NCBI GenBank assembly: GCA_963722255.1
Contig: CAVRJO010000002.1
Span: forward strand, 232,169 to 296,168
Length of the DNA: 64,000 bases
Direction: 5' to 3'
Origin: Candidatus Babeliales bacterium
GTDB taxonomy: Bacteria > Babelota > Babeliae > Babelales > JANWKD01
Shown here: piece by piece, positions 54,556 through 58,374 of the stretch
Numbering within the stretch: the stretch's first letter is position 1
Layout of the letters: the number at the start of each line of letters is the position of its first letter
Notes under the pieces: generated by a model
The model's input: only the letters and a program-made list of their open reading frames with translations
The model's database searches: none
What the model was told of the DNA's origin: nothing
Position numbers and translations under genes: made by a program

Positions 54556-55308
54556 ATGAAAATACTCAATTCAGCATTTTATTTCTTAACAATTTTCTAT
54601 GCAACTTCATCTTATGCAATGGAACAAAATAATCGCATATCACAACAAAAGTTTAACAATCCTACTTTTTTAGAAAAAATCTGTAAATCTGATGGAGTAT
54701 TATTAAGAGCAGCTTTAGACCAAGGGCTTTCACCAAATGCTCACATGTATCCTTATGTACAATTATTGACCTATGTTTTAGATCATTCCTATTCACATTC
54801 AGTTAACAATGCAAAAGAATTAGTAAACCGTGGTGCGATTGTTAGATCTTCACATGTCTATGAATCTATAAAATTTCATGATATAGAACTATTCACTATC
54901 TTGCTTAATGCATGTACAGACTTTGATATAGAAGAAGACAAACAACATGGGTACCATGGTTATACACTTTTACATAGTGTAGCGGCTAGGGGAGGGAATT
55001 ATGAACTGGTAGAAAAATGTATGCAATTAGGTTATAACATAGAGGCACAAGATGATAAAGCTGGCAATACTCCGTTATTTGAAGCAATATTAAAACTTAA
55101 AATACCTGCTATAAGAGCATTGATTGCTCATGGAGCAAACCTTCATGCAAAAAATAAATCTGGTAAAACCATTTTAATGTGCGCAGAACAAAATTCAACG
55201 TTGATTGCTAAAAATATAAAAATGCATTTGAGAGTGCAAACTTATCTTGGGTTAGGTAAACAGTTACCAGTTGAAATAACTGACCATATCGCCAGTTTCT
55301 ATAAGTAG
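54556..55308 (+). CDS. exported ankyrin-repeat protein with C-terminal F-box-like LPVEITDHIASFYK tail (family A, copy 1)
   Basis: 250-aa ORF. Leader ...SSYAMEQ. ANK units GYTLLHSVAARGGNYELVEKCMQLGYNIEAQDDKAGNTPLFEAI...LIAHGANLHAKNKSGKTILMCA. About half of residues are identical to 57622..58374 by eye. Confidence 0.8.
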   Translation: MKILNSAFYFLTIFYATSSYAMEQNNRISQQKFNNPTFLEKICKSDGVLLRAALDQGLSPNAHMYPYVQLLTYVLDHSYSHSVNNAKELVNRGAIVRSSHVYESIKFHDIELFTILLNACTDFDIEEDKQHGYHGYTLLHSVAARGGNYELVEKCMQLGYNIEAQDDKAGNTPLFEAILKLKIPAIRALIAHGANLHAKNKSGKTILMCAEQNSTLIAKNIKMHLRVQTYLGLGKQLPVEITDHIASFYK

Positions 55309-55334
55309 ATCAAATATTCGCTTATGATTAAGCG

Positions 55335-56072
55335 CTAAATTATTTTTGGAGGCAAATTAAATTCAGCTTCATACTTCTTTAGTTCAGCAAGCATCATGCG
55401 CGCTTTAAAACATTTAAATTTAGATTCATTAGAATTTTTTGATCGATCTGAACAAAAGCACTCGATGTTATTTTTTAAAAGATTTTCAACAGAATCCGAT
55501 TTATCTTTATGAGCAGATTTATAAATATCCGGATTGAATTGAAGCAAAGTAAAAAATGCTTCTAATTTTAAGTCTTCAGCTGCCTCCTGCAATAATGTTT
55601 GATTAGTTGAATAATAAGTCTCACGATGCATAGTAGACATTTTAGAATTAACTAATTCAGGTGCTTTAGTAAGCAGCAATGAAATAACGATTCCATCGTC
55701 TGCCTCAACGGCATTCGAAATGGTGTGAATATCGGGATATACCCCTGCTTTAAGAGCAATTTTAACTAGATGAGCATTATCTGAATAATGCCAAAGAGGA
55801 AAATCATCAAGGGAACCATAACGATTTTTATAAAGCTTTAAGCTTTTTTTAAATTTTTTTGAAGCTATTTGCTCTTCTAAGTCCATCATCTTTGAATTTA
55901 AATCTACCCAGTTCTTATATTTTGGATCAAATTCTTTTTCCTTTATTTGTTCACTATCAATTTGATTCGATGAATTTTCAGCTTGTGTGTTTAAAAAGTT
56001 GATTGCAAAAGTGAGTAATAACACTAAAGAAAAATATTTTTTCATAGGACACCATAATTCATTATTAAACAC
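55335..56072 (-). CDS. secreted hypothetical protein (family B, copy 1); likely start 56045
   Basis: Shares KNRYGSLDDFPLWHYSDNAHLVKIALKAGVYPDIHTISNAVEADDGIVISLLL with KVVHGDLSNFPLWTLSGCEELVRIALKKGVNPEIHSLSNAVEANDVKMVAMLL of the next gene. Possibly degenerate ANK-like helices. Confidence 0.6.
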   Translation of the reverse strand: MFNNELWCPMKKYFSLVLLLTFAINFLNTQAENSSNQIDSEQIKEKEFDPKYKNWVDLNSKMMDLEEQIASKKFKKSLKLYKNRYGSLDDFPLWHYSDNAHLVKIALKAGVYPDIHTISNAVEADDGIVISLLLTKAPELVNSKMSTMHRETYYSTNQTLLQEAAEDLKLEAFFTLLQFNPDIYKSAHKDKSDSVENLLKNNIECFCSDRSKNSNESKFKCFKARMMLAELKKYEAEFNLPPKII

Positions 56073-56128
56073 TTAGAATCTTATGCCAAGACACATTGAA
56101 ATCAAATAGATTGCCTACATAAGAAACT

Positions 56129-56800
56129 TTAAACATTTTTTTCCTTATCCTGTTTTTGCAGCGCATCTTTTTCATATTCCAGTAGCAAATCAAGCATTGC
56201 ACATGCTCTGCGATAATCAGAAGTGTTAACATCGAATTCTTCCATTTTTTCTTTGAGAATATTTTTAGGGGTTTCAGACGGACGCACAGCTTTGTTGATA
56301 TCTGGGTTGTAGACAAGCAAAACATTAAAAACATCAATCAGCAAATGCCTTGATGCATATTGCAATAAGGTATCGGAAGTTACTGCAAAACTGCCCATTT
56401 GCAAAGACAACCCTTCTTGCATTTTCAATGTACCTTGAAGTCGAGAAGAAAAACACTCATTAACATGACTAGAATCTTCATCAAGCAACATTGCTACCAT
56501 TTTAACATCATTTGCCTCAACGGCATTAGAAAGAGAATGTATTTCAGGATTAACTCCTTTTTTGAGAGCAATTCTAACTAATTCTTCACAACCAGAAAGC
56601 GTCCATAAAGGAAAATTGCTTAGATCTCCGTGAACTACTTTATAACTTTTAATAAATTTTTTGAATTCACTTTTAGTATATGGCGATTGGTTCATACAGA
56701 GTATTGAAAAACTGTATGTAATTAAGCTTAATGATAAAATTATTCTATTTTTGAAGAGCATAGCATTCCCTTTGGTAATATTGTGGATAAAATCTTGCAT
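56129..56800 (-). CDS. secreted hypothetical protein (family B, copy 2); likely start 56761
   Basis: 223-aa ORF, paralog of 55335..56072. Leader MLFKNRIILSLSLITYSFSILCMNQ. Confidence 0.6.
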   Translation of the reverse strand: MQDFIHNITKGNAMLFKNRIILSLSLITYSFSILCMNQSPYTKSEFKKFIKSYKVVHGDLSNFPLWTLSGCEELVRIALKKGVNPEIHSLSNAVEANDVKMVAMLLDEDSSHVNECFSSRLQGTLKMQEGLSLQMGSFAVTSDTLLQYASRHLLIDVFNVLLVYNPDINKAVRPSETPKNILKEKMEEFDVNTSDYRRACAMLDLLLEYEKDALQKQDKEKNV

Positions 56801-56944
56801 AAACAGTGTATTTTCTCTTTATTGAGATTGCAAACTATTTAATTGTTTTGGTGTATATACCTAACAATGTATAGTCACTGCCTATTTTAATTGGTAAACT
56901 TTACTAGAATAATAGTTATTACTTTCAATATGAGGATATTCATT

Positions 56945-57598
56945 ATGAAATTTTCACTCTTACAGATATTAATTTTTATGTTACCTTTTCAAACTTTTTC
57001 CATGAATAACGATACATTAAATATAATTCAATTATCTACAATTGAAACAAAGGAATTGCTTTTGGGTGCATGTATTGAGAATACCGCATCTAATTTAGAA
57101 CGGATATTGAATTCTGGTATTTCACCTGATACAACTGTATATCCATTATTAGCGAAATGCTTAAGTAGCGGCAAAAAAGAACATATCAATTTGCTTTTAA
57201 ACAGAGGAGCAACTGTTACCAAATCACACATTTTGAAATCAATTAATTTAAAAGATCTTGAATTATTTGGGCGCTTAATTCGCCAATGTAAAAATTTTAA
57301 TTGCAATGAAAAACTATTACCCCATAATAATGAAACACTTTTACATGAAGCTAGCCGCAATGGATCTTCTGAGATAGTTGAAAAGCTCATTTCGCTCGGC
57401 GCTGATTTGGAAGCAGAAGATGATTTCGGGTATACACCTCTCTTTACTGCCGTTGCACATAAAAATATACCCGTAATTAAAACGCTCTATACTAAGGGTG
57501 CAAATATACATAAAAAAATTAAATCAGGAGAAACTGCTCTTTCTAGACTTCAAACAACCCTACCAGAACTTGCAGAAGAAATATTAATAGAAAAGTAA
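56945..57598 (+). CDS. exported ankyrin-repeat protein ending TLPELAEEILIEK (family A, copy 2)
   Basis: Preferred ATG at 56945 (MKFSLLQILIFMLPFQTFSMNND); the track ORF starts at 56891. ANK units NETLLHEASRNGSSEIVEKLISLGADLEAEDDFGYTPLFTAVAHKNIPVIKTLYTKGANIH. Confidence 0.75.
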   Translation: MKFSLLQILIFMLPFQTFSMNNDTLNIIQLSTIETKELLLGACIENTASNLERILNSGISPDTTVYPLLAKCLSSGKKEHINLLLNRGATVTKSHILKSINLKDLELFGRLIRQCKNFNCNEKLLPHNNETLLHEASRNGSSEIVEKLISLGADLEAEDDFGYTPLFTAVAHKNIPVIKTLYTKGANIHKKIKSGETALSRLQTTLPELAEEILIEK

Positions 57599-57621
57599 AA
57601 TTCCAACAAAAAGTTATTTTT

Positions 57622-58374
57622 ATGATGAAACATATGATACTAATTCTTCCACTAATAGTGCTCTTAAATATCAATGCATTGATTTATACCATGAATAAAG
57701 ATAACCAAACTATTAATCTTACGCAGTGCAATAATCCAGCAAAGCTCTACACAAATGCTGACGTTTTATATAATTTTTGTAAAGTTGAGAATTTAGACCT
57801 ATTGAAGTATGCATTAAATCACGGACTGTCTCCCAATACTGCACTTTTTCCCTTGTTAAAAACCACACTATCCAATGGCGCAATCGAATCTGCAAAGGAA
57901 TTAATAAAAAGAGGAGCTTATGTTAGTTCTTCACATATTCGTCAATCAATATCGTTATGCGATAATGAATTATTCAATAGCATATTCTCTGCTTGTGAAG
58001 ATTTTGATATTGAGGAAGAAAAAGAAGAGTACTGGCATACCTTATTACATGAAGCAGCAGCTAAAGGAACTCCCGAAATGGTCGAAAAATTCATCGAATT
58101 AGATTTTAATATCGAAGCACAAGATCGTCGTAATCGTACACCATTATTTGTAGCAGTGAAAGCGGGTAATATCCAAAAAATTAGAGTATTAATCGCCAAA
58201 GGCGCTAACCTTCATGCAGAAAATAAATCCGGTAAAACTATTTTAATGCTTGCCCAAAAATCACCGATAGCTGCAAAAAATATTAAGGTACGTATGCAAG
58301 GTCTATCCTATCTTAGTTGTGGTAAACAGTTGCATGTTGAAATAACTGACTATATTGCTAGTTTTTATAAGTAA
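57622..58374 (+). CDS. exported ankyrin-repeat protein with C-terminal QLHVEITDYIASFYK tail (family A, copy 3)
   Basis: 250-aa ORF. ANK units WHTLLHEAAAKGTPEMVEKFIELDFNIEAQDRRNRTPLFVAVKAGNIQKIRVLIAKGANLHAENKSGKTILMLA. Confidence 0.8.
   Translation: MMKHMILILPLIVLLNINALIYTMNKDNQTINLTQCNNPAKLYTNADVLYNFCKVENLDLLKYALNHGLSPNTALFPLLKTTLSNGAIESAKELIKRGAYVSSSHIRQSISLCDNELFNSIFSACEDFDIEEEKEEYWHTLLHEAAAKGTPEMVEKFIELDFNIEAQDRRNRTPLFVAVKAGNIQKIRVLIAKGANLHAENKSGKTILMLAQKSPIAAKNIKVRMQGLSYLSCGKQLHVEITDYIASFYK

Follow-up and report, generated by a model that had tools for sequence, protein, structure and literature searches.

Two of three small ankyrin repeat (ANK) proteins encoded at 54556-58374 of the 64,000-nucleotide DNA stretch analyzed here (contig CAVRJO010000002.1; hereafter, the window), together with a metagenomic ortholog, were found to end in a homologous tail of 17-20 residues, composed of a short Leu-Pro (LP) loop and a single amphipathic helix (EITDHIASFYK). 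No other segment of these proteins is under as strong a protein-level constraint, and in two of the three sequences the tail resembles the beginning of the F-box in profile comparisons, above chance and in the register proposed by a first-pass annotation of the window. Based on the sequence comparisons, the reading favored here, with a probability of about 0.4, is that the tail represents a minimal F-box mimic, one helix long, carried by a small ANK effector for which binding to Skp1 is predicted. The first-pass annotation had described three ankyrin paralogs ending in a truncated F-box-like motif; its observation was partly confirmed and its interpretation partly supported.

Three ankyrin genes are present as open reading frames (ORFs) on the plus strand of the cluster, named A1 (protein P0001), A2 (P0002), and A3 (Table 1), and the C-termini that had been quoted for them were exact in all three translations. 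Each protein exceeded the Pfam cut-offs for Ank_2, Ank, Ank_3, and Ank_4, with Ank_2 scoring 56-62 bits (cut-off 27.3; 1e-16 for A1). The AlphaFold2 (AF2) model of A1 had a mean predicted local distance difference test (pLDDT) score of 84 and its top Foldseek matches were exclusively ANK/DARPin folds, while a search of viral folds (BFVD) with the same model returned generic ANK matches and nothing else. A1, A2, and A3 are therefore ankyrin repeat proteins by profile and, for A1, by solenoid fold. The identity of about 50% previously attributed to the paralogs applied to A1 and A2 (50-51%), whereas A3 shared 35-36% with the other two. A protein identical to A1 was present in NCBI, ENA, and Logan assemblies, and the metagenomic ortholog (P0003; 239 aa, 47% identity) was found in a separate ENA sample. 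An identical copy of the A1 gene was also observed in locus L002 (ENA ERZ25039473 contig_28041, from the same long-read assembly), which was compared with window 53556-55725. This locus leaves the window sequence inside the gene at 55335-56072 and then runs into an epimerase gene, which points to a rearrangement between strains or to chimerism of the contig.

The tail of the two window paralogs followed the pattern YL..GKQL[P/H][V/I]EITD[H/Y]IASFY[K/N], directly before the stop codon, and P0003 carried the same tail (YLACGKQLPIEITDHIASFYN, again directly before the stop), homologous to those of A1 and A2. In the AF2 model of A1, a helix at residues 215-232 was followed by a loop at 233-238 (GKQLPV) and a terminal helix at 239-249 (pLDDT 69-78), which agrees with the earlier description of a first helix only, at the extreme C-terminus. 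An LP loop leading into a helix is also the geometry with which an F-box begins. The LP plus helix-1 pattern LPxE[IL]xxx[ILV] was present in P0001 and P0003, and absent from P0002, which reads L-H, and from A3. The stop codon occupied the identical position in P0001, P0002, and P0003, with different codons (TAG, TAA, and TGA), and the downstream frames of the three tail-bearing genes had nothing in common. In addition, window 50255-59748 was 100% identical to an independent short-read contig, which also supports the tail sequence of A2. A frameshift or read-through artefact was ruled out by these observations, and the short C-terminus is considered genuine because P0003 stops at the same place and the short-read contig is identical.

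Over the last 17 codons, the nonsynonymous divergence (dN) was 0.05-0.10, compared with 0.38-0.53 across the remainder of the mature protein and 0.34-0.49 in the ANK core, such that the tail was 5-8x more constrained than the ANK core. The synonymous differences in the same codons numbered 4-7, with a synonymous divergence (dS) of 0.6-2.2 that was saturated and comparable elsewhere. Because synonymous differences are frequent in the tail codons, the constraint acts on the protein, and recent gene conversion was ruled out as the source of the tail identity. The strong conservation of the tail amid diverged paralogs, as the first-pass annotation had argued, was hence borne out in three sequences whose identity is otherwise 47-51%.

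The resemblance to the F-box was evaluated with a profile of nine aligned F-box sequences, which was validated against the PDB. The profile recovered Skp2, Fbw7, beta-TrCP, Cdc4, cyclin F, TIR1, and FBXL2/5/17 in this check, as well as other FBXO proteins and Legionella AnkB (5k35, 5e-5). When compared to the profile with hhalign, the tail alignment scored about 18.3 (P = 6.4e-4, probability 28%) and placed KQLPVEITDHIASFY onto F-box columns 5-19, which cover helix 1 and the LP loop before it. When the columns of the tail alignment were shuffled, 400 of 400 shuffles fell short of the real score (mean 7.7, standard deviation (SD) 1.8, maximum 14.7). Among 64 natural C-terminal 37-mers, which formed a background with a mean of 7.9 and an SD of 2.7, the highest scores were those of P0001 (19.2, P = 3.2e-4) and P0003 (18.8), followed by a next best of 11.9. 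The proposed register against the start of the F-box therefore held for P0001 and P0003 (P = 3-6e-4).

Motif statistics were calculated over the 61 long ORFs of the window (16,976 residues). The strict pattern LPxE[IL]xxx[ILV] was expected 0.18 times and observed twice, and within the last 20 residues of the 61 proteins it was expected 0.008 times and observed once. The tail, read as L-P-VE-I-TDH-I, also fits the poxviral consensus phi-P-x2-phi-x3-phi (PMC6232478). This loose consensus was uninformative as a count, with 26 occurrences observed versus 19.9 expected in the window.

Several observations weigh against an F-box mimic. The stop codon of A3 lies about 25 residues earlier and the protein has no tail; its C-terminal segment TLPELAEEILIEK aligned to the helix found ahead of the tail in A1 and A2 (S[TP]LIAKNIK) and does not fit LPxE[IL], and the "motif" assigned to it (LPELAEEIL) is not homologous to the tail. 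The claim of a motif shared by three paralogs was thus reduced to a homologous tail in A1 and A2, and A2 reads L-H-V-E-I, with the hallmark Pro lost. This Pro was invariant across the nine-sequence alignment and is usually the most conserved residue of the F-box, such that its loss in A2 counts against the mimic. The hhalign scores of A2 (11.3, P = 0.037) and A3 (10.8, P = 0.049) were at the upper edge of the background, and the hhalign probability was just 28-39% over 12-15 columns. The tail-bearing proteins end 14 residues after the Leu of LP, and helices 2 and 3 of the F-box are absent. Additionally, the conservation spans nearly every tail position rather than the F-box-typical ones alone, and a conservation pattern from three sequences cannot discriminate between the hypotheses. 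All family members have Sec-type hydrophobic N-termini with the look of a signal peptide or an anchor, and no known export route to the host cytosol goes with those of A1, A2, and A3.

Searches with established profiles were also negative. No match to the Pfam families F-box, F-box-like, or PRANC was found among the full proteins (E <= 1) or the isolated tails (E <= 10), and a plain F-box hidden Markov model (HMM; HMMER, filters off) gave the A1 tail a noise-level score of 2.1 bits (E ~1 in a set of 232 six-frame ORFs); sub-threshold results had been anticipated for such searches. A phmmer search of the PDB with the last 49 aa matched designed repeat proteins only. Neither the full proteins nor the tails were recognized as an F-box domain (PF00646 / PF12937), and in place of its three helices over ~40-50 residues a single terminal helix was predicted by AF2. 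The order of elements typical of PRANC proteins, with the ANK repeats N-terminal and an F-box-like element at the extreme C-terminus, was observed. The PRANC architecture proposed for the family accordingly stood as a domain order in P0001 and P0003, without a match to the PRANC profile (PF09372) and with one helix rather than the two of its truncated F-box. Because of the missing profile matches and the number of helices, the proteins are not demonstrable members of the F-box or PRANC families.

Searches of protein collections, species genomes, metagenomes, and viral contigs brought up no additional members of the family, which also speaks against a mimic. For example, a full-length profile searched against 1.84 billion representatives was dominated by giant ANK proteins, with P0002 and P0003 as the only true relatives. 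Similarly, the family alignment and the tail pattern returned generic ANK proteins and no tail-bearer from 185,579 species genomes, a set that does not include the genome of the window, and degenerate DNA patterns for the tail, two in JGI metagenomes and one in IMG/VR, had 0 matches. The tail-bearing ANK family is very rare.

Three points are inferred: a functional meaning of the resemblance to the F-box, the passage of the ANK proteins out of the bacterium and into the host cytosol, and a Skp1-type protein as the partner of the tail. In the mechanism proposed for the F-box mimic, the tail would imitate the N-terminal loop and helix 1 of the F-box and settle on the surface with which a Skp1-type adaptor binds F-boxes. 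This adaptor may be the host Skp1 or the neighboring bacterial Skp1-like/WD40 protein described below. A target protein, bound by the ANK repeats, would thereby be either coupled to a cullin-RING ubiquitin ligase or kept away from it. A3, which has no tail, and perhaps the LH variant A2 would represent ANK-only or weakened versions.

A one-helix F-box is plausible because of precedents in cowpox CP77, chlorovirus ANK proteins, and Orientia Anks. Most Skp1 contacts of the F-box come from helix 1 and the preceding loop, and the poxvirus F-box, which is cut to two helices and lacks helix 3, retains Skp1 binding (PMC4353913). The F-box of CP77 is described as effectively helix 1 only, with Skp1 still bound (PMC4353913). 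The families of poxvirus ANK proteins also include ANK-only and truncated forms (PMC4353913). The proteins of the window resemble the poxvirus ANK/F-box (PRANC) proteins and CP77 in their N-terminal ANK repeats and truncated F-box-like element at the extreme C-terminus. Unlike PRANC proteins, they are bacterial, 250 aa in length rather than about 500-650, and of a Sec-type N-terminus; they match no PRANC or F-box HMM, one paralog has LH for LP, and their Skp1 binding is a prediction.

Among bacteria, ANK plus F-box effectors such as the Orientia tsutsugamushi Anks and Legionella AnkB recruit host SKP1 (PMC5957444, PMC4209131), and the F-boxes of the Orientia Anks are C-terminal (PMC5957444). 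The combination of ANK repeats with an F-box or F-box-like element is shared with these effectors, as is the C-terminal placement with Orientia, whereas the F-box of AnkB is N-terminal. Their F-boxes are recognizable by profile, while the tails described here were not recognized by a plain HMM; they are substrates of a type I or type IV secretion system (T1SS or T4SS), while the proteins here are of the signal-peptide type. The Dependentiae (e.g., Chromulinavorax destructans), which are AT-rich obligate protist parasites, encode many small ANK proteins, 78% of which have signal peptides (PMC6561590). The window proteins are similar to these in their signal-peptide-type N-termini, eukaryote-like domains, and composition (30-41% GC), and differ in that no C-terminal F-box-like tail is described in that account (PMC6561590). 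The resemblance to Dependentiae-type protist parasites is an analogy rather than an assignment, and the source is an uncultured, AT-rich bacterium that is probably eukaryote-associated.

If functional, a bacterial, signal-peptide-bearing ANK protein of 250 aa with a 14-residue LP-helix would be a new form of an already known type of protein. If Skp1 is bound, no shorter natural F-box mimic would be known from a bacterium, and a compact "ANK plus LP-helix" effector design would exist that is invisible to the current F-box and PRANC profiles; similar effectors would then probably have been overlooked in the genomes of uncultured protist parasites. Without Skp1 binding, the tail would still be the most constrained element of the family and thereby offer a handle on its real partner.

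The tail could instead be a conserved helix with a structural or interaction role that has nothing to do with SCF (Skp1-cullin-F-box) ligases, and with a coincidental likeness to the F-box; this is the main alternative and nearly as probable as the mimic. Such a helix might pair with helix 215-232 into a hairpin capping the ANK stack, or it might bind a bacterial partner, and the proteins might even be periplasmic immunity or inhibitor proteins of an ANK type. Consistent with this, the Sec-type N-termini occur on all members, small paralogs of two families lie in a tandem array, the AF2 tail helix is of moderate confidence and directly follows the long helix, the tail is conserved except at the hallmark Pro, and HMM support for an F-box is missing. 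ANK proteins serving as periplasmic self-protection factors are also on record, with Bdellovibrio cited as an example in PMC6561590. However, A3 keeps an intact ANK domain without the tail, which is therefore not needed for the ANK fold; a constraint of 5-8x over the ANK core would be unusual for a simple cap; the F-box profile score exceeded those of 400/400 shuffles and all other C-termini tested; and no toxin or enzyme partner was identified in the adjoining genes. An immunity protein paired with a downstream hydrolase was considered and rejected, as the downstream ORFs have no Pfam support.

The extreme C-terminal position of the tail is also what would be expected of a sorting or secretion signal, whether for crossing the outer membrane, for vesicle loading, or for a dedicated secretion system. 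Host-acting proteins would need some exit from the periplasm, and Dependentiae-type parasites export most of their ANK proteins with signal peptides (PMC6561590). Such a role is unlikely because no other signal-peptide protein nearby has the tail: it was absent from the window proteins with a similar N-terminus at 22864, 40248, 50483, 53713, 55335, and 56129, from A3, and from the upstream gene of locus L001. The absence of DNA-pattern matches in the JGI metagenomes and viral contigs, and of tail-bearing relatives by peptide pattern in the species genomes, also argues against a sorting signal. C-terminal secretion signals are not known to be conserved to such near-identity, which further counts against it.

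The C-terminus of A3 raised another alternative, as its TLPELAEEIL fits exactly the BC-box consensus [TSP]-L-x3-[CSA]-x3-phi (PMC6232478). In this alternative, the C-termini would attach to Elongin C (Cul2/Cul5) in the manner of the poxvirus ANK/BC proteins, a class in which the BC box is a single C-terminal helix. It is very unlikely for the family, as the tail of P0001, P0002, and P0003 fails at two positions (Gln before the Leu, and Ile at the Cys/Ser/Ala site) and the matching segment of A3 is not conserved in the other paralogs. The consensus is also loose, with 18 occurrences observed versus 12.4 expected in the window and 2 versus 0.5 in the C-terminal 20-mers. The BC box was hence rejected for the conserved tail, and the fit of A3 is not significant.

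The candidate bacterial adaptor for the putative F-box mimic is an 800-aa protein encoded 1.7 kb upstream of the ANK cluster (50483-52885, Table 1), which had been labeled Skp1-like in the first-pass annotation. Pfam matches included BTB (22.5 bits, cut-off 20.5) and PQQ_2 (34 bits), with Skp1_POZ below threshold. A three-sequence profile matched residues 18-127 of Skp1 in the PDB at E = 1e-5 to 7e-3, as well as WDR5, and an AF2 model of the N-terminal 330 aa retrieved many Skp1 chains with Foldseek (20-24% identity, TM (template modeling) scores of 0.55-0.67). The label is reasonable for the POZ part, by sequence and fold, but the C-terminal F-box-binding domain of Skp1 (PF01466) was not detected by Pfam in this protein. 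The only other strict LPxE[IL]xxx[ILV] match of the window, LPQEIKTMV, is located in the same protein after the propeller and was retained as GY.DLPQE[IF]KT[ML]VE.HN in a 44%-identical homolog (P0154). An invariant LPEEMQ[IL]PLSQ was also observed directly after the second Skp1-like domain. The protein may be a single-chain Skp1-plus-receptor mimic that binds the cullin directly.

A combination of this secreted Skp1-like/WD40 protein with ANK proteins that dock on it, or on host Skp1, would amount to a self-encoded SCF-like module, which is considered improbable. In chloroviruses, ANK proteins have a Skp1-interaction motif at the C-terminus that works together with a Skp1 encoded by the virus, and the presence of ANK proteins and a Skp1 homolog in one genome is similar to PBCV-1, with its ANK proteins A682L/A607R and Skp1 A039L (PMC7019647). 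Unlike the chlorovirus Skp1, the neighbor here consists of two Skp1/POZ-like domains fused to a WD40 propeller instead of a stand-alone protein, and the likeness is by description only. If the F-box mimic is true, the locus together with this neighbor would point to an island devoted to the subversion of cullin-RING ligases. If the module is also true, it would be a bacterial counterpart of the chlorovirus Skp1/ANK pair, and the 14-residue LP-helix would be a sufficient and portable Skp1-binding unit.

Table 1. Coordinates of the ankyrin genes, their C-terminal segments, and neighboring features in the window.
Feature	Position	Strand	Description
ANK paralog A1 (P0001)	54556..55308	+	ORF, 250 aa; hydrophobic N-terminus at aa 1-21 (ending SSYA, then ME), ~4-5 ankyrin repeats, long helix 215-232, tail
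A1 tail YLGLGKQLPVEITDHIASFYK	55243..55305	+	Translation; loop GKQLPV, then helix EITDHIASFYK predicted
ANK paralog A2 (P0002)	57622..58374	+	ORF, 250 aa
A2 tail YLSCGKQLHVEITDYIASFYK	58309..58371	+	Homologous to the A1 tail; His in place of the hallmark Pro
ANK paralog A3 (third paralog)	56891..57598	+	235 aa from TTG, or 222 aa from ATG 56930
A3 C-terminus TLPELAEEILIEK	57557..57595	+	Aligns with the pre-tail helix of A1/A2, not with the tail
Small protein B1	55335..56072	-	Secreted-type N-terminus; no Pfam match at cut-off; no tail motif
Small protein B2, B1 paralog	56129..56800	-	Secreted-type N-terminus; Ank_3 0.0022, below cut-off; no tail motif
800-aa protein	50483..52885	-	Secreted-type N-terminus, two tandem Skp1/POZ-like domains, then a WD40 beta-propeller
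LPQEIKTMV	50732..50758	-	Inside the 50483-52885 protein, 91 aa from the C-terminus

The ANK genes are interleaved with the B1/B2 pair on the opposite strand, and B1 and B2 share the motif FPLW...[LV][VR]IALK.GV.P[DE]IH..SNAVEA.D. The hydrophobic N-terminus ended in Ala-Met-Glu in a number of unrelated proteins, including those at 22864, 40248, and 54556 on the plus strand, 50483-52885 and 53713-54360 on the minus strand, and 994 and 1529 of locus L001, with examples such as FYAMEKQ, SYAMEQ, FAME, and LVAMEAP. Within the first 35 aa of the 61 proteins, Ala-Met-Glu was observed five times versus ~0.15 expected by a rough estimate, and it may represent a motif for signal-peptide cleavage or sorting that is specific to this lineage. 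The 1629-aa ORF at 40248-45137 (+) also begins with an N-terminus of the FAME type. This ORF and the large ORF at 38091-40061 (-, 656 aa) had no match in Pfam.

Elsewhere in the window, the str/S10 ribosomal-protein operon (1-14,700, minus strand) was split by frameshifts into many short ORFs. For example, EF-G was found in fragments at 13357-13806, 12995-13336, 12082-12594, and 11735-12097, and EF-Tu in fragments at 11274-11714, 11105-11404, and 10638-11117, all on the minus strand. Since these genes are essential, the breaks are more likely to be local assembly or indel errors than pseudogenes. Similarly, UvrA was found in two ORFs on the plus strand (47699-49303 and 49383-50312), separated by 79 nt, and public collections list its C-terminal piece as a protein of its own. 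The 64-kb window contained no tRNA or rRNA genes.

A group II intron was identified at 16309-18047 (-), with a reverse transcriptase/maturase ORF (RVT_1 and GIIM) and the Rfam group-II domains D1-D4 at 17759-18047. Additionally, a direct repeat of 235 bp with 94% identity was present at 59659-59892 and 62815-63049, yielding the paralogous small ORFs 59576-59959 and 62825-63082. These ORFs flank an AAA_14/DUF4143 ATPase gene (60808-62052) and adjoin an IS4/5 transposase (63142-63954).

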